NCBI GenBank assembly: GCA_964349465.1
Contig: CAYGGC010000007.1
Coordinates: forward strand, 1-58,669
Source: an uncultured Gammaproteobacteria bacterium
GTDB lineage: Bacteria > Patescibacteriota > Patescibacteriia > SBBC01 > CAIJZX01
Length of the DNA stretch: 58,669 nucleotides
Direction of reading: 5' to 3'
In this document: positions 16,691-25,091 of the stretch, one piece after another
How positions within the stretch are numbered: position 1 is the first letter of the stretch
How the letters are laid out: every line of letters starts with the position of its first letter
The notes under the pieces: generated by a model
Databases searched by the model: none
What the model was told of the DNA's origin: nothing
Seen by the model: only the letters and a program-made list of their open reading frames with translations
Made by a program: the position numbers and the translations under genes

Positions 16691-17116
16691 ATGATCGATT
16701 GGAATGTTTCGTGGTTACCGGTTCTCAGTGTAACGCTGTTGAATTTTTTTGGTAGCTGGGTCTATTACTCGCCGATGTCGCCGCTGTTTAAAAAGTGGCA
16801 ACTCGCACTCGGAATGGATCCGAATAAACGGACGATGACCGAGGAAGAGAAGAAGAATATGCCCCGACTGTTCGGCGGCGCGATCCTGGCCTCGTTCTTG
16901 ATTGCCTATGGCATGAGCGTTTTTGTTCACTCGCTCGGACTCGAGACGTTTGCGGACGGCGCAATCTTCGGGGTAGTGGCCTGGGCGACGTTTGCGGTTA
17001 CCCTCAGCCTCAATACCCAATTTGAAGGTCGAAAACCAGTCGTCCTCGTTATCAATAATATTCTTTACGTTGTAACGTACGCGATATTCGGCGGTATCTT
17101 TGCGATTTGGAGATAA
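16691..17116 (+). CDS. DUF1761-family membrane protein
   Basis: About 140 aa with four hydrophobic helices. N-terminal NFFGSWVYYSP pattern. ATG 16691; alternative TTG 16673. Confidence 0.6.
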   Translation: MIDWNVSWLPVLSVTLLNFFGSWVYYSPMSPLFKKWQLALGMDPNKRTMTEEEKKNMPRLFGGAILASFLIAYGMSVFVHSLGLETFADGAIFGVVAWATFAVTLSLNTQFEGRKPVVLVINNILYVVTYAIFGGIFAIWR

Positions 17117-17128
17117 TTAGTTCTTGAT

Positions 17129-17160
17129 GAAAGGGCCCCGCCTAAAGGCGGGGCCCTTTC
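17129..17160 (+). terminator. strong intrinsic terminator (left edge of AT-rich islet)
   Basis: 14-bp stem GAAAGGGCCCCGCC-TAAA-GGCGGGGCCCTTTC. Confidence 0.75.
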
Positions 17161-17201
17161 ATATTTGCTTTTCATTTGGGCGGGGTGTAGGCACGGCTAA
17201 G

Positions 17202-17230
17202 TTGAAGTTTTATCGAAAAAAGAGTATAAT
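17202..17230 (+). promoter_or_regulatory. sigma70-type promoter
   Basis: TTGAAG-17 nt-TATAAT. Confidence 0.55.
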
Positions 17231-17275
17231 ATAGATGAAAAATAAGAAAAACAGACCGTTTGTTCCCAAATTTTC

Positions 17276-18457
17276 ATGAAAAAGTCGAGTAATCCGAAGT
17301 TATTTGCTGTAAAAAACATGACCAAGGATTACGTACTATTTGTAAATAGGGGAAATTTGAGGATAGCTCGTGAAAACATGGGCTTGGATTTTTTTGCTGC
17401 ATCAAAAAAAATTACGACGTCAAAAAGAAATTACGTTAAGGAATGGGAAGAAGGTGCCTCACTGCCGAAATGGTCGCAGTTAATCAAACTAGCAAAAGCA
17501 TACAACATCTCTGAACTAGCTCTTTGTAGTAAAGAGGAAATTCAAAAAAACAAAAAGATTACAGATTTTCGAGTTGAAATCAAAGATGACAATAATGAAA
17601 AAGTAAATAAGCTTATAAACATTGTTTCTTCTCGCCAAAGATGGTTGGAAAGAAAAATGAAGGAAGATGGTTTGGCAAAGAATAAACTGGTAGGTTTTGG
17701 AAGAGACATTGATGATCCAATAAAACTGGCCAAGGTGGTAGCCGACGAGCTAGATTTTAATTTGCAGAATATAATAAATTTTTCTGGCAATGATGCGAAA
17801 AAGAAAGCACTCAAATACCTTACTGAAAAAGTTGAGTCTAAAGGAATATTTGTAGGTAAAACTATATCCTATATCAAAGTTGATGTTGAGGATTTACGGG
17901 GCCTTTCGATTAGTAACGATTATTGTCCTTTCATTGTTATCAATAGGAGCGACTCTGTAGCCGCTCAAATTTTCTCTTTAGTTCATGAGGTAACACATGT
18001 ATTTAGAAAAAGTGATGCTATTTCAAATAGCCTGGAATTCAGAAAAGAACAAACTCGCTTAGATCCCGAAGAAAGAATTTGTAATAGTGTTGCAGCCGAG
18101 TTATTGTTGCCCGAATCAGAGTTTACAAAGCCATTTTATGACCGGGAAAATATTTACGAATTTGCTGAAAAGTATAAAGCCAGCCCACTTTTTGTTCTAT
18201 ACAGAATGAAAGAATTGGGAAAGTTAGGTAAAGGAAGTTTTTCCGAATTGGAAAATAGTATTAGAACAGAGACAAATAGAAATTTAGAAGAAAAGAAAAA
18301 ATTGATGATGGGCAAATCAGGTGGGAGCTTCATCAACAACATGAAAGACTCAAATGGAAATTTGTTTAATAACTTTGTGTCTAGCGCGTATTTTGAGAAA
18401 AAAATAGGTTTTATAGAAGCCGCGAATCTCTTGAAATATTCCCCTGAACAGGCATGA
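17276..18457 (+). CDS. XRE-type HTH fused to ImmA/IrrE-family (COG2856) zinc metallopeptidase
   Basis: N-terminal HTH-like segment (LRIARENMGL...LIKLAKAYNISELAL) and HExxH (VHEVTHVF). 393 aa. Local GC is far below the flanks. Confidence 0.75.
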   Translation: MKKSSNPKLFAVKNMTKDYVLFVNRGNLRIARENMGLDFFAASKKITTSKRNYVKEWEEGASLPKWSQLIKLAKAYNISELALCSKEEIQKNKKITDFRVEIKDDNNEKVNKLINIVSSRQRWLERKMKEDGLAKNKLVGFGRDIDDPIKLAKVVADELDFNLQNIINFSGNDAKKKALKYLTEKVESKGIFVGKTISYIKVDVEDLRGLSISNDYCPFIVINRSDSVAAQIFSLVHEVTHVFRKSDAISNSLEFRKEQTRLDPEERICNSVAAELLLPESEFTKPFYDRENIYEFAEKYKASPLFVLYRMKELGKLGKGSFSELENSIRTETNRNLEEKKKLMMGKSGGSFINNMKDSNGNLFNNFVSSAYFEKKIGFIEAANLLKYSPEQA

Positions 18458-18945
18458 CGAGCGGTCTCTCACAAAATACCCTTGTACTTGATACAAATGT
18501 GTTAATAGATTTTGCAATTTGGCTTCCGTTTGAAGTTAATACAACTTTTTGGTCTGTATTAGAGAAAGGCTTAGAACAAGCACGCTGGGTTCTTTTGGAT
18601 GTTGTTGAGCAAGAAATTGTTGGCAAATACGATCAGGATTTAAAGAAATGGTGTAACGAACAAAAAAAACTGGGGTTAGTCACAGCAATTACCCCAGCTA
18701 ATCGCCAAAGAGCAATCGAAATTAATAATCAATACAAAATGGTTGACGATGTTTCAGGAAATTCCGCCGCTGACCCATATATTTTAGCTTTTGCCGAAGC
18801 AGAAAAAATCACTTTGTTTTCTCGAGAAGGTAAACGTGATAATCCCACAAAGTTATACAAGATGGAAGAGGTTGCACTTCTACTTGGAATCAAGTACACA
18901 AGATTACCAAATGCTCTATATAAAGAGTTGAATTACATCAACTAG
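18454..18945 (+). CDS. DUF4411-family PIN-like protein
   Basis: ATGA start/stop overlap with the peptidase gene. LVLDTNVLIDF...FW..L......VV.QEI...AADPYILAFA matches the DUF4411/PIN-like pattern. Confidence 0.7.
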   Translation: MTSGLSQNTLVLDTNVLIDFAIWLPFEVNTTFWSVLEKGLEQARWVLLDVVEQEIVGKYDQDLKKWCNEQKKLGLVTAITPANRQRAIEINNQYKMVDDVSGNSAADPYILAFAEAEKITLFSREGKRDNPTKLYKMEEVALLLGIKYTRLPNALYKELNYIN

Positions 18946-18960
18946 CAATCAAATCCATAA

Positions 18961-18988
18961 AAAACCCCGTCCTCTCGGACGGGGTTTT
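18961..18988 (+). terminator. strong intrinsic terminator (right edge of AT-rich islet)
   Basis: AAAACCCCGTCC-TCTC-GGACGGGGTTTT. Confidence 0.75.
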
Positions 18989-19056
18989 CTTATAGATTCG
19001 TTACGCTCGCATTCCGGCGCCCACCCCGCACCACAAGGGTGCGGGGCAGGTCGGTC

Positions 19057-21126
19057 TTAGGCTCGTCCACCAGCCATTGCTGGCTTTATTATAGGTTTTG
19101 GCAATTCCTCAATCAACGGTGCAGTAAACTGTGAGTTATACAGAGATGCATAGAACCCATTCGCTTTCAGGAGTTCATCGTGCTTCCCTTGCTCGACGAT
19201 GTTCCCGTCTTTCATGACGAGGATCAGGTCAGCGTTCTTGATCGTGGAGAGGCGATGGGCGATGACGAAGCTCGTCTTATCGTGCATCAGGCGGTCCATC
19301 GCTTGCTGGATTAAGATTTCGGTGCGGGTGTCAACTGAGCTCGTCGCTTCGTCGAGGATAAGCATCGGGGTCTTGATCAACATGGCTCGGGCAATCGTCA
19401 GGAGCTGCTTTTCACCTTGCGAAATATTATTCGTTTCCTCATCGAGGACAGTAGCGTATCCCTTCGGGAGGGAATGGACAAAGTGATCCACGTGGGCGGC
19501 TTTGGCCGCAGCAATGATGTCGGCTTCCGAAGCTTCCGGATGGCCGTATGCGATATTCTCGCGGATCGTGCCGTTGAAGAGCCAGGTATCCTGCAAGACC
19601 ATGCCGAAGAGTTTCCGAACATCGGCGCGCGCGAGCGTCCGCGTATCAACACCGTCGATCTTGATTGTCCCGCTCGTCAGGTCGTAGAAGCGCATCAAGA
19701 GGTTGACCATCGTCGTTTTTCCGGCGCCGGTCGGTCCGACGATGGCGACGCGTTGGCCGGGATTCACTTTGGCCGTAAAGCCGTGGATAATCTCTTTTTC
19801 GGGAGAATAGCCGAAGTGGACGTTCGCAAATTCGACTTCGCCACGAACGCCAGTCATGGCTTTCGCCCCGACAGTGTCGGGCGCTTCTTCCGATTCCGCT
19901 AAGAACTCGAAGACGCGTTCAGCCGCGGCCGCGGTGGATTGTAGAATATTCGCGACTTGCGCTGTTTGGACAACCGGCTGGTTGAACTGTTGGACGTAGG
20001 AGATAAAGGCTTGGATGTCGCCGATGTTTAATTTCCCATTTATAGCAAGCCAGCCGCCGACAATCGCGACGCCGACGTAGCCGATGTTTCCGACGAAGGT
20101 CATCAAGGGGAACATGAGGCCCGAGAGGAATTGCGATTTCCAGGCTGTCCCGAAGAGTTCGCGGTTGTGCTTGTTGAAGGTTTTGAGGCTGCGTTCTTGG
20201 CCATTAAAAACTTTCATGACGGTGTGGCCGCCAAACATTTCTTCGATGTGCCCGTTGAGGTGACCAAGCGTCGCTTGTTGTTTCTTGAAGAACGCTTGTG
20301 ACCGCTTCACGAGGAACATCAACAAGCCGAAGCTCAACGGGAGTGTTAAGACCGCGACAATCGTCATCTGCCAACTAATCGTCAACATCATCGCCAAGAT
20401 ACCGACAATCATCGTGGCCGAGGAGATAATCTGGCTCATCGATTGGTTGAGGGTCTGGCCGACCGTGTCGATATCGTTGGTGATACGGCTGAGCACTTCG
20501 CCGTAGGTTGTACCATCAAAATATTTCAACGGCATCCGACCGATTTTCAAAGAAATATCACGGCGGAACTGGTAGGTGATCTTCTGCGAGACGCTGGTCA
20601 TAATCCAGCCCTGGAAGAGATTGAAGATCATGCTGATCACGTACAGCACGACGAGCAGAATCGCTAACGACCGAATACTGTCATAGTTGAATGACGGGCG
20701 GACGGAGAGATCGAGATCAGCAATCGCTGTTTTTACTTTGGCCGGAATATTCTCCGTGGCTGCGGCTGGAAGTTTCGCGAGGTACTCGGCGCCAGTCGTG
20801 CCGGGTGGAATCACCGTGCCGGCCGGGAGTTGAGCGTGGAATTGATCGTAGGTTGAACGGGCAATGAAGTCATCAACAATGTGATTCGTCATATGCCCGA
20901 GGATTTTCGGACTGGCGATTGCGAAACCGGTGCTGGCAATCGTAAAGACGATCACGAGAATCATTTGCCAGCGGTGCGGCCGGAGGTACTGTAAGAGTTG
21001 GCGCATCGTGCCTTTAAAATTCTTGGCTTTTTGCCCACCTTGCATCATCGCCATCGGGTTGCGGCCTATGGGCATGATCGGTTTGGTGGCTTGCTTATCT
21101 TTGTTTACCATTGGTTCGTTGCTCAT
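19057..21126 (-). CDS. ABC exporter, fused permease/ATPase (type I exporter half-transporter)
   Basis: Six-TM domain plus Walker A GPTGAGKT, signature ISQGEKQLL and Walker B LILDEATS. Confidence 0.9.
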   Translation of the reverse strand: MSNEPMVNKDKQATKPIMPIGRNPMAMMQGGQKAKNFKGTMRQLLQYLRPHRWQMILVIVFTIASTGFAIASPKILGHMTNHIVDDFIARSTYDQFHAQLPAGTVIPPGTTGAEYLAKLPAAATENIPAKVKTAIADLDLSVRPSFNYDSIRSLAILLVVLYVISMIFNLFQGWIMTSVSQKITYQFRRDISLKIGRMPLKYFDGTTYGEVLSRITNDIDTVGQTLNQSMSQIISSATMIVGILAMMLTISWQMTIVAVLTLPLSFGLLMFLVKRSQAFFKKQQATLGHLNGHIEEMFGGHTVMKVFNGQERSLKTFNKHNRELFGTAWKSQFLSGLMFPLMTFVGNIGYVGVAIVGGWLAINGKLNIGDIQAFISYVQQFNQPVVQTAQVANILQSTAAAAERVFEFLAESEEAPDTVGAKAMTGVRGEVEFANVHFGYSPEKEIIHGFTAKVNPGQRVAIVGPTGAGKTTMVNLLMRFYDLTSGTIKIDGVDTRTLARADVRKLFGMVLQDTWLFNGTIRENIAYGHPEASEADIIAAAKAAHVDHFVHSLPKGYATVLDEETNNISQGEKQLLTIARAMLIKTPMLILDEATSSVDTRTEILIQQAMDRLMHDKTSFVIAHRLSTIKNADLILVMKDGNIVEQGKHDELLKANGFYASLYNSQFTAPLIEELPKPIIKPAMAGGRA

Positions 21127-22897: not shown

Positions 22898-23140
22898 TTA
22901 GGCGTTCTTTAAGACGTCGCGGATATTTTCTAATTTGGCACTTAGTTTTTCCGCAATTTTTTCAAGTTGTTCAAATTTTGCGAACGTGACCATATTTCCG
23001 CCCATCCCAAAGACGAGGAGCTTATCGCCGGATCGTAGCTTCAGCGCTTTTCGAGCTTCGGCGGGGATAACCACCTGGCCTTTTTCGCCGATGGTCGTTG
23101 TACCGTAGAAATGTTTGTGATGATGATCGGTTGATTTCAT
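22898..23140 (-). CDS. AbrB/MazE/SpoVT-family DNA-binding protein
   Basis: Swapped-hairpin motif GQVVIPAEARKALKLRSGDKLLV. ATG 23140 is preferred; alternative start 23188. Confidence 0.7.
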   Translation of the reverse strand: MKSTDHHHKHFYGTTTIGEKGQVVIPAEARKALKLRSGDKLLVFGMGGNMVTFAKFEQLEKIAEKLSAKLENIRDVLKNA

Positions 23141-23248
23141 AGGGATTGAAAATCCTACAAGTAAGAAATGTAGGAAATACAATATCATGTCATTCAGTAA
23201 TGGTCAAGTTCGGCCACGATGACCGGAAACCTGCTATACTCCAGCCCC

Positions 23249-24811
23249 ATGACCCAAGCTACTGCTCTCGAGATTCTCCAAACCGGCGCGAATGTTTTTT
23301 TAACTGGCGAACCGGGCTCGGGGAAAACCTACCTCGTGAACCAGTATGTCCAGTATTTGCGTGAACACCAGGTCGCTGTCGCGATCACCGCCTCCACTGG
23401 CATTGCCGCCACCCACATTGCCGGTTCGACAATTCACTCCTGGAGCGGCATTGGGATTCGCCGAAGTTTAACAAAACACGACCTCGAAGCGCTGACGACG
23501 ATGGAGCGGTTGGTTAAGCAAATCACGAACACACGCGTGTTGATTATCGACGAAATTTCGATGCTCGACGCGGGCCTGCTCGATATGGTCGAGGAGGTTT
23601 GCCGCGTGATTCGTCGCGACGAGGCGCCCTTCGGCGGGTTGCAGGTGGTTGTCGTCGGTGATTTTTTTCAGCTCCCGCCGATTTCGAAGTTTGGCGAACC
23701 CGACGCGCAATTTGCTTTTTCGGCACGGGCCTGGACCGAAGCGATGTTTGAAGTTTGCTATCTGACTGAACAACATCGGCAATCCGACGCGGCGCTGTCC
23801 GGAGTCTTAGGCGCGATTCGCCGCGGCGAAGCGCCGGCCGAAACCCATGAGCTCCTTAAAACCCGACAGGTCACCGCCGGACCGGCGCACGCCGAAACCA
23901 CCAAGCTCTACGCACATAACGCCAACGTCGATGAAGTTAACGCCGAACGCTTAGCAACTCTGCCCGGCGACGTTCATCAGTTCACTATGTCGCACCGCGG
24001 TCCAAAAGCTAAGGTCGAACAACTTGTCCGCGGGTGTCTTTCGCCGGAAGTGCTGGAATTGAAAATTGGAGCGGTTGTGATGTGCACGCGGAATAATCCG
24101 GAGCGTGGGTATGCGAACGGGACACTCGGTACCGTCGTGCAATTTAGCGCCGCCGAAGGGTATCCAGTCATCAAGACGCGAACCGGCCGGACGATGACGG
24201 TCGAGCCAATGGAATGGGCAATTGAAGACGGCGAGCATGTGACCGCGAGTATTGAGCAAGTGCCATTACGGCTGGCCTGGGCGATCACCGTTCATAAAAG
24301 TCAGGGCATGTCCCTCGATGCGGCCGTGATGGACCTTTCGCGATCATTCGCTTTTGGCCAAGGTTACGTCGCCTTGTCGCGCGTTCGGACCTTGGAGGGG
24401 TTGCATCTTCTCGGTTGGAATGAACGCGCGTTGCAAGTCGACCCGCAGATTCAAGAACAAGATCGAACCATGCGGGCGGCGTCTGTTGCGGCCGAAGAAG
24501 CTTGGCGGGCCCTCCCGACATCCATGAAACAAGAACGGCAGGAAGATTTTCTCCGGCAGAGCGGTGGAAAAATTCATGTCAAACCTTCAACCGTTGTGCC
24601 TGGGGCCGTGGTTGATGTTCCGCCCCATACGAAACGCCTAGCGGAGATTCGAGAACAATATCCGCGAGCGTATACACCCTGGACCGCTGAACAAGACACT
24701 CGTCTTCTTGAGTTGCATCAGGCCAACGCCACCATGAAATCCATCGCGGCCGACTTACAGCGTCACCCTGGCGGGATTCGGGCGCGTCTGAAAAAACAGG
24801 GGCTGATGTAA
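23249..24811 (+). CDS. SF1B DNA helicase, Pif1/RecD family, with C-terminal HTH-like tail
   Basis: Walker A GEPGSGKT, Walker B LIIDEISM, FFQLPP and VHKSQG motifs. Confidence 0.85.
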   Translation: MTQATALEILQTGANVFLTGEPGSGKTYLVNQYVQYLREHQVAVAITASTGIAATHIAGSTIHSWSGIGIRRSLTKHDLEALTTMERLVKQITNTRVLIIDEISMLDAGLLDMVEEVCRVIRRDEAPFGGLQVVVVGDFFQLPPISKFGEPDAQFAFSARAWTEAMFEVCYLTEQHRQSDAALSGVLGAIRRGEAPAETHELLKTRQVTAGPAHAETTKLYAHNANVDEVNAERLATLPGDVHQFTMSHRGPKAKVEQLVRGCLSPEVLELKIGAVVMCTRNNPERGYANGTLGTVVQFSAAEGYPVIKTRTGRTMTVEPMEWAIEDGEHVTASIEQVPLRLAWAITVHKSQGMSLDAAVMDLSRSFAFGQGYVALSRVRTLEGLHLLGWNERALQVDPQIQEQDRTMRAASVAAEEAWRALPTSMKQERQEDFLRQSGGKIHVKPSTVVPGAVVDVPPHTKRLAEIREQYPRAYTPWTAEQDTRLLELHQANATMKSIAADLQRHPGGIRARLKKQGLM

Positions 24812-24842
24812 TCGCGGGAGTGGAGTGATACACTCTCTATAT

Positions 24843-25091
24843 ATGTATTATCTCTATATTGTGCGTTGCCGCGACGGGACATTCTATACTGGTATTACCA
24901 CAAATATTGCTCGGCGGATTAAGGAGCATAATGATTCACCAAAAGGAGCGAAATATACCCGGTCGAGGCGCCCGGTTGAGCTTGTCTATCAACGTCGTTT
25001 TCGGACGCGGGCCAACGCGAGTATCGCCGAAGCAAACATGAAGCGTCTGAGCCGAATGCAAAAAGTTTTTCTCATCACTCAAGCGACATAA
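24843..25091 (+). CDS. GIY-YIG nuclease family protein (UPF0213)
   Basis: YYLYIVRCRDGTFYTGITTNIARRIKEHN. Confidence 0.85.
   Translation: MYYLYIVRCRDGTFYTGITTNIARRIKEHNDSPKGAKYTRSRRPVELVYQRRFRTRANASIAEANMKRLSRMQKVFLITQAT

Follow-up and report, generated by a model that had tools for sequence, protein, structure and literature searches.

Contig CAYGGC010000007.1 of assembly GCA_964349465.1 (58,669 nt, analyzed over its full length and referred to here as the window) carries an A+T-rich islet at 17117–19056. It encodes two overlapping open reading frames (ORFs): ORF A, a helix-turn-helix (HTH) protein with an ImmA/IrrE-type metallopeptidase domain, and ORF B, a PIN-like protein of the DUF4411 family. 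We consider it likely that this cassette is a self-contained, horizontally acquired type II toxin-antitoxin (TA) or abortive-infection-type module, in which a fused HTH-ImmA/IrrE (COG2856) antitoxin is paired with a PIN-like DUF4411 toxin and which works like RosmerTA. Its layout is that of type II TA operons, as the pair is compact, co-directional and overlapping, moves as a unit and has a patchy distribution. The host is a Patescibacteria bacterium, the name borne by the homologues of the flanking ABC transporters (65–88% identity). The pairing has already been predicted, partly tested as a class and solved structurally, and the cassette is a new, cleanly delimited example of it that does not overturn current understanding. 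What is new is a clade spanning the Candidate Phyla Radiation (CPR), the variable-slot context and a candidate neutralizing motif, which together are of modest added value. The features of the two genes are as follows.

17276–18457, forward strand: ORF A, longest form, 393 aa
17318–18457, forward strand: ORF A, supported form, 379 aa (the in-frame alternative start at 17276 gives 393 aa)
17357–17533, forward strand: HTH (XRE/Cro-C1 type) DNA-binding domain of ORF A, from structure match and homologues
17861–18211, forward strand: Peptidase_M78 domain of ORF A, with the HExxH motif (H-E-V-T-H) at 17984–17998
18320–18370, forward strand: conserved tail motif of ORF A, GG-x3-N-x-M-[KR]-D-S-N-G-x-L-F-N, almost unchanged across 71 homologues
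18454–18457, forward strand: ATGA shared by the stop of ORF A and the start of ORF B
18454–18945, forward strand: ORF B, 163 aa
18490–18492 (D13), 18613–18615 (E54), 18772–18774 (D107) and 18826–18828 (E125), forward strand: candidate catalytic residues of ORF B

Conservation and linkage of the two genes

Relatives were collected from GTDB species representatives, searched from ImmA, and from metagenomes, searched from DUF4411. The nearest relatives of both proteins share 44–57% identity and are almost all encoded by metagenome-assembled genomes (MAGs) of Patescibacteria/CPR, while ORF A is only 28–31% identical to ImmA homologues of Firmicutes and Proteobacteria. A DUF4411 gene lies directly 3′ of ImmA in all 34 CPR loci that are not cut by a contig end, and in four of four distant loci (Bombilactobacillus, two Sutterellaceae and a Clostridia MAG). 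From the other side, ImmA is found directly upstream of DUF4411 in 76/76 metagenome loci that have upstream sequence. The co-conservation on which an earlier note, made from the letters of this DNA, had made its proposal depend is thus present in both searches. The genes overlap in every one of 85 unique cassettes, by 4 nt in 62 of them and as ATGA in 61 of those; in the window the ATGA shared by 17276–18457 and 18454–18945, which the earlier note had also read, indicates probable translational coupling of the two genes. This unit of just two genes occurs at more than 100 loci in unrelated neighborhoods and is always paired. Judged by its sequences, the clade is a distinct subfamily, largely of CPR/Patescibacteria, where it is widespread and strictly two-gene. 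One of its members is found in a cultured organism, Minisyncoccus archaeiphilus PMX.108 (NZ_AP038758.1, about 550.7–552.3 kb), which has a homologous pair with an ImmA 50% identical to ORF A and is a possible native test system.

The DUF4411 protein has a predicted VapC-like PIN fold

ORF B is predicted to be the toxin, a DUF4411 protein whose model has a VapC-like PIN fold. It contains the LDTNVLIDF and AADPYILAFA stretches by which it had originally been recognized as DUF4411-type and PIN-like, and the assignment holds, with a match to PF14367 (DUF4411) over residues 11–151 (E 4e-15, 56.4 bits, cut-off 23.5). The AlphaFold2 (AF2) model (pLDDT 87.7, pTM 0.84) was compared with the PDB using Foldseek. 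The top 25 matches are all PIN-domain proteins, with TMt up to 0.68, and are mostly VapC/FitB TA toxins, together with Nob1 and uncharacterized archaeal PIN proteins. Rv0301, FitB, VapC11 and VapC15 are the best structural matches. D13, E54, D107 and E125 are invariant in all 86 unique ORF B homologues and are conserved also in chain D of PDB entry 9vzy (see below). Thus, the acidic residues on which the earlier note had staked the PIN assignment are all four in place, within a VapC-like fold model. The protein is likely to be a Mg2+-dependent nuclease directed at RNA. In PHROGs, it falls in phrog_11126.

The module resembles VapBC and FitAB in the fold of the toxin, the catalytic D-E-D-E/D constellation, the overlapping genes with that of the antitoxin in front and the PIN dimer that the antitoxin probably binds. 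However, the antitoxins of those systems are ribbon-helix-helix, AbrB or Phd proteins of ~70–90 aa, whereas the antitoxin candidate here is a multidomain HTH-metallopeptidase of ~380 aa. Furthermore, DUF4411 is a separate Pfam family, and the similarity of ORF B to PF01850 (PIN) is only borderline, with an E-value of 6.4e-5 and 24.0 bits against a cut-off of 23.6.

The HTH-peptidase protein and its conserved tail

ORF A is predicted to be the antitoxin and regulator. It consists of an XRE-type HTH, a helical linker, a Peptidase_M78 domain (ImmA/IrrE, COG2856) and a conserved C-terminal tail; both domains had been proposed in the earlier note. The peptidase domain, which includes the VHEVTHVF stretch, matches PF06114 (Peptidase_M78) with an E-value of 6.8e-16 (58.6 bits, cut-off 22). 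The H, E and H of HEVTH are invariant in 71/71 unique ORF A homologues; 63 of these also keep the AAELLLP Glu, which is putatively the third ligand of the zinc. With its HExxH intact, the M78 peptidase is putatively catalytic and may cleave a repressor or antitoxin, either itself or in trans. The closest structures to the peptidase core are those of CapP (7t5t), IrrE (3dti) and PprI (8sln).

The N-terminal HTH is evident from structure and homology. The Pfam models HTH_19, HTH_31 and HTH_3 match ORF A below threshold (E about 0.02, ~15 bits vs cut-offs of 23–30). The N-terminus of the AF2 monomer model (pLDDT 80.3 overall) superposes on the DNA-binding domains of P22 c2 and DdrO with TMt of 0.72–0.81 and a root-mean-square deviation of about 2 Å, the HTH aligns with that of 9vzy chain A (E 3e-6), and PF01381 or PF13560 is found in several homologues. 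As these three lines agree, we regard the HTH as confirmed.

Profile searches place ORF A among known regulators. It matches PADLOC RmrA model PDLC03954 over residues 25–332 with an E-value of 2.3e-16, one of at least nine RmrA models matched, all reported without a curated cut-off, and it has a full-length match to phrog_2439, a "transcriptional regulator" family (E 3e-39). The score against NCBIfam NF052239, the equivalog of the spr1629 family repressor/antitoxin, is 35.7 bits against a cut-off of 335, and by this comparison ORF A is only a distant relative of that family. For annotation, RmrA-type antitoxin/regulator is a better name for ORF A than just "XRE regulator".

The C-terminal motif coincides with residues 333–347 (379-aa numbering), the only internal stretch of the ORF A model with a pLDDT below 50, and is common to ORF A and 9vzy chain A (GGGNwYRNTVRD). 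Because it is strongly conserved yet of low confidence in the monomer model, as expected of neutralizing segments of antitoxins, we propose it as a candidate toxin-binding segment that may fold on the toxin.

Relationship to known systems

The architecture has been noted before. COG2856-Xre fusions associated with PIN toxins appear as predicted three-component TA systems in Makarova et al. 2009 (PMC2701414), and Matelska, Steczkiewicz and Ginalski 2017 (PMC5499597) found DUF4411.1 downstream of fused HTH-DUF955. The architecture is identical here, with a single-domain DUF4411 protein bearing four acidic residues encoded directly 3′ of a fused HTH-Zn-peptidase gene, in agreement with the earlier note's remark that the pairing had been predicted computationally as a TA module. 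The difference is that these were computational surveys of the genomes then available, whereas the clade described here is a distinct subfamily largely in CPR/Patescibacteria.

Experimental work has been done on RosmerTA, in which a Zn-peptidase antitoxin is paired with a functionally uncharacterized toxin and for which Millman et al. 2022 reported phage defense and could not transform ΔrmrA. In the work of Ernits et al. 2023 (PMC10440598), ImmA emerges as a hub among antitoxin domains, with PIN-like domains among its associates, and a RosmerTA carried by a phage was validated. Like RmrT/RmrA, our pair is a two-gene operon in which an HTH at the N-terminus of the antitoxin is joined to a Zn-peptidase of the ImmA type and the toxin is swappable, PIN-like partners having been noted by NetFlax. 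In contrast, there is no PIN nuclease among the validated RmrT toxins, whose function is unknown or, for Kita RmrT D5, membrane depolarization.

A structural counterpart also exists. PDB entry 9vzy contains three chains of a 393-aa "HTH cro/C1-type domain-containing protein" and six chains of a 162-aa "DUF4411 family protein", and 9vzz contains the DUF4411 protein alone. Chain A of 9vzy matches ORF A with an E-value of 3.6e-21 across the HTH, the peptidase and the C-terminal GGN motif, while 9vzy chain D and 9vzz match ORF B with an E-value of 3.2e-12, similar lengths and the D/E/D/E positions kept. The homology is distant, at profile level only, and the deposited sequences look high-GC in origin. 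Both entries are missing from the Foldseek PDB matches (library up to April 2026) and are thus probably newer than that library. Our literature search found no publication for 9vzy or 9vzz and no recent mechanistic work on Rosmer-type systems. With a solved complex of homologues, and a RosmerTA class validated with other toxins, the earlier note's statement that the pairing lacks experimental characterization does not stand.

M78 metallopeptidases are also combined with XRE repressors in CapH/CapP, regulators of the cyclic-oligonucleotide-based antiphage signaling system (CBASS), and in DdrO/IrrE(PprI) and ImmR/ImmA. However, protease and repressor are separate proteins in these systems; IrrE has its own HTH-like domain and cleaves the separate DdrO. 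They control large regulons, defense operons or mobile elements, and a one-to-one pairing with a small PIN gene is seen in none of them. A rival reading of the cassette is a stress- or damage-responsive switch rather than an addiction-type TA system, in which ORF A would be a fused repressor-protease, like CapH/CapP or DdrO/IrrE, that silences the PIN gene until signal-induced self-cleavage, with no stoichiometric neutralization. The nearest structures to the peptidase, CapP and IrrE/PprI, are indeed signal-activated proteases that cut XRE repressors, the invariant HExxH implies that catalysis is under selection, and a generic-regulator role for Xre-COG2856 proteins was raised by Makarova et al. 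2009 (PMC2701414). The co-deposition of homologues of both proteins in one PDB entry at 3:6 chains argues instead for a complex, and the universal translational coupling suits stoichiometric co-production. In addition, the ORF A tail, strongly conserved and disordered alone, is typical of antitoxins that fold upon binding. We therefore regard such a switch as unlikely.

A further alternative reverses the roles or adds a third component, such that the Zn-peptidase would be toxic, the fused HTH its antitoxin and the PIN protein an accessory or second toxin. This idea goes back to Makarova et al. 2009 (PMC2701414), where COG2856 is listed as a predicted toxin often fused to an antitoxin domain. 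Later experiments put the Zn-peptidase protein as the antitoxin (ΔrmrA could not be transformed, and the ImmA node was validated by NetFlax), COG2856 proteins were non-toxic in S. pneumoniae or E. coli (PMC4257102), and PIN domains are established TA toxins. A reversal of roles is thus very improbable.

Proposed mechanism

The scheme that we infer for toxicity, neutralization, the role and substrate of the peptidase, its trigger and the RNA target is as follows. Both genes would be transcribed from the cassette's own promoter, with translation coupled via ATGA. By homology to the co-deposited 9vzy chains, ORF A is expected to bind ORF B directly and hold the nuclease inactive. One antitoxin would probably be bound per PIN dimer, since the 9vzy chain ratio of 3:6 fits this stoichiometry, and the contact would probably be made through the C-terminal GG..N.M[KR]DSNG.LFN segment. 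The N-terminal HTH would repress the operon. Phage infection or DNA damage (e.g. single-stranded DNA, as for CapP and PprI) may be the trigger that acts on the M78 peptidase, which would then cleave the antitoxin/repressor, either its own molecule or a partner, by analogy with ImmA/ImmR, IrrE/DdrO and CapP/CapH. Alternatively, release may follow when antitoxin synthesis simply ceases. The freed Mg2+-dependent PIN nuclease (D13, E54, D107 and E125) would cut RNA (tRNA, rRNA or mRNA) and arrest growth.

We also put forward, more tentatively and as something that we ourselves doubt, a stronger version of this scheme. In this mainly CPR/Patescibacteria clade, the M78 peptidase, with its invariant and intact HExxH, would serve as a sensor dedicated to infection or damage that, once activated, cuts the fused antitoxin at or near the C-terminal segment or the HTH linker, so that a single polypeptide would serve as repressor, sensor-protease and neutralizer in control of a PIN nuclease. 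The cassette would then represent a widespread abortive-infection defense of ultra-small episymbiotic bacteria. To our knowledge, the phage biology of these bacteria is almost unknown.

Several observations weigh against a TA or abortive-infection module of the RosmerTA kind. No PADLOC-DB 2.0 RmrT model matches ORF B at E ≤ 1. The earlier note had suggested a PADLOC check, and its result is therefore divided: ORF A matches RmrA models, but the pair, however similar its predicted workings, cannot be called as RosmerTA by the PADLOC 2.0 models, which overlook ORF B as a predicted PIN toxin. No conserved operator was identified upstream of ORF A, where the upstream regions of 37 loci are unalignable and share no palindrome. 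A defense-island context was considered and rejected, as the neighbors are housekeeping genes. Stand-alone COG2856 genes were non-toxic in S. pneumoniae (PMC4257102), and predictions in this class can fail; we count this here even though it does not conflict with an antitoxin role. Finally, in one metagenome copy (L079, 1871–3486) ImmA is split by an in-frame stop and its C-terminal frame is lost, while the DUF4411 gene is intact. Unless the disruption of ImmA is an artifact of assembly, the toxin can be tolerated there. In another copy (L109, 1790–3456), the DUF4411 gene lacks its N-terminus; the two copies could reflect decay or assembly errors.

Horizontal acquisition into a variable slot

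The composition of the islet is foreign to the window. In the sliding composition of the stretch, 500-bp intervals across 17501–19000 have a GC content of 0.336–0.372, compared to 0.43–0.62 for the remaining intervals, with the exception of 17001–17500 (0.392), which straddles the left edge of the islet. Positions 17163–18960 are 35–37% GC, against 52.2 ± 2.2% elsewhere in the window. The islet as a whole (17117–19056) has a GC content of 0.369, ~7 standard deviations below the mean of the other 1940-bp intervals (mean 0.522, standard deviation 0.022, minimum 0.476). These values bear out the A+T-rich islet between flanks of ~50% GC that had been described from inspection. GC content at third codon positions (GC3) is 0.32 and 0.31 in the two islet ORFs, compared to 0.56 in the trigger factor gene and 0.68 in the ABC gene. 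A similar difference is seen in the family, as the cassettes of 38 loci average 35.5% GC against 44.0% for their flanks (~8 points lower) and lie more than 5 points below them in 26 loci.

The nearest relatives of the window, L051 and L055, whose ABC protein is 86–88% identical, retain the MazE-like/ABC/ABC block and DUF1761 without the ImmA/DUF4411 pair between them. Their slots (8077–10974 in L051 and 8083–12351 in L055) contain four to six unrelated small hypothetical genes that have no Pfam matches and a host-like GC content of 0.56 and 0.50, respectively; a 111-aa and a 205-aa slot gene are present in both. The nucleotide similarity of these relatives to the window stops at 17116 and restarts at 19094. 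Since the closest relatives keep both flanking genes with different genes between them, the slot is variable and the cassette was brought into it from outside. The cassettes of other genomes are found in unrelated neighborhoods, for example adjoining infC-rpmI-rplT. The foreign composition, with the GC3 values, and the synteny with the closest relatives together support horizontal acquisition of the cassette, which the earlier note had proposed from composition. It is a well-delimited recent import of an HTH-ImmA/DUF4411 cassette, and comparison with relatives places both of its insertion borders. The border features are as follows.

17127–17162, forward strand: left border hairpin, a 17-nt perfect stem (inverted repeat), ΔG −34.6 kcal/mol, z −7.5
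18961–18988, both strands: core of the right border hairpin, ΔG −24.7 and −33.6, z −7.7 and −8.3
19001–19022: 22-nt relic of the ancestral ABC 3′ end, 21/22 identical to the ABC termini of L051 and L055
19024–19046: hairpin with a 9-bp stem after the ABC relic, arms CCCCGCACC/GGTGCGGGG, between the right terminator and the true ABC stop

The two strong hairpins between which the earlier note had placed the islet are both real, but they belong to the flanking host genes. The left hairpin serves the host's DUF1761 gene, whose stop codon is at 17116, as an intrinsic terminator; it is GC-rich and host-like rather than cargo. The right hairpin is a bidirectional terminator common to ORF B on the forward strand and the convergent ABC transporter gene on the reverse strand. 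L051 and L055 have an analogous hairpin 3′ of DUF1761, and relatives have a GC-rich hairpin at the equivalent position 3′ of the ABC gene. Because relatives carry equivalent hairpins at these places, we conclude that both are host terminators framing the variable slot, outside the imported DNA. At the right edge, the true ABC stop of the window is at 19057, and the 22-nt relic, whose reverse complement codes for GAGMRA-stop, sits beyond that stop; the region 19001–19046 is probably a recombination scar. No convincing flanking direct repeats or target-site duplications were found around the islet. The arm of the left terminator, TTTGGGCGGGG, recurs as a third copy 28 nt downstream (17136–17146 and 17175–17185), such that an alternative pairing with the 5′ arm is possible.

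Foreign DNA with an ImmA gene could also be a remnant, namely the ImmR/ImmA-type immunity region of a prophage or integrative element that has since decayed, DUF4411 then being a passenger gene unrelated to it. ImmA/ImmR modules do control mobile elements, both proteins fall in PHROG families, and one distant ImmA/DUF4411 pair is located on an unverified fecal phage contig. Nevertheless, no integrase, excisionase, att-like direct repeat or other mobile-element gene was found in or adjoining the islet, neither profile found a CPR-type cassette among the 2.9 million viral contigs of IMG/VR, and the constant pairing of the bare unit at its many loci is not that of a passenger. Among plasmids, PLSDB contains no CPR-type cassette. 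We consider an origin as such a remnant highly unlikely. An ImmR/ImmA-type mobile-element immunity module was likewise rejected as a class for the cassette, as the repressor is fused to the peptidase and there are no element genes or flanking direct repeats.

Neighboring genes

Trigger factor, MarR, DUF1761 and ABC exporter genes are the neighbors of the cassette in the window. A small MazE/AbrB-like (SpoVT-type) gene lies at 22898–23188 on the reverse strand, upstream of two ABC genes, and accompanies the ABC-ABC operon in every relative examined, with no toxin gene adjoining. As there is no adjacent toxin gene, it is more likely to be the regulator of the ABC operon than an antitoxin. A PIF1-family helicase gene, followed by a small GIY-YIG nuclease gene, is located at 23219–25091. 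The PADLOC matches of the ABC and PIF1 genes were rejected, since they reflect generic ATPase and helicase similarity rather than defense.

Start codon and promoter of ORF A

The first gene had been described as encoding 393 aa, which is its longest ORF. The ATG at 17318, giving 379 aa, agrees with the gene call in the public collection and with the N-termini of 37 relatives, and this family-supported start is favored over that at 17276 on sequence comparison. The candidate promoter and a short upstream reading frame are located as follows.

17202–17230, forward strand: candidate σ70-like promoter TTGAAG-17-TATAAT, 10/12 consensus positions
17235–17279: 14-codon mini-ORF MKNKKNRPFVPKFS, beginning 4 nt past the TATAAT box

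The promoter had been proposed in the earlier note as the islet's own. The site is present, but a consensus scan of the region gives eight promoter-like sites against 5.8 expected by chance, so that, taken alone, it is weak evidence for a promoter of the cassette. The TGA of the mini-ORF shares an ATGA with the upstream of the two in-frame ATG codons, that at 17276, which bears on the choice of start for ORF A; the mini-ORF could be a leader peptide or a chance occurrence.

In 19 of 37 relatives (L010–L044), a −10-like hexamer ends 4–12 nt before the ImmA ATG. Over these 37 loci, 21 such hexamers fall in the 0–9 nt bin upstream of ImmA, compared to 2–11 in other bins. This distribution suggests that half of the family may have leaderless or near-leaderless transcripts, an arrangement that the cassette of the window does not share. 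Three related Parcubacteria/Paceibacterota loci (L013–L015) have in common a 14-nt long-range inverted repeat, GCAACCAACTCAAGT ... ACTGAGTTGGTTGC, which brackets a terminator hairpin directly upstream of the ImmA promoter.

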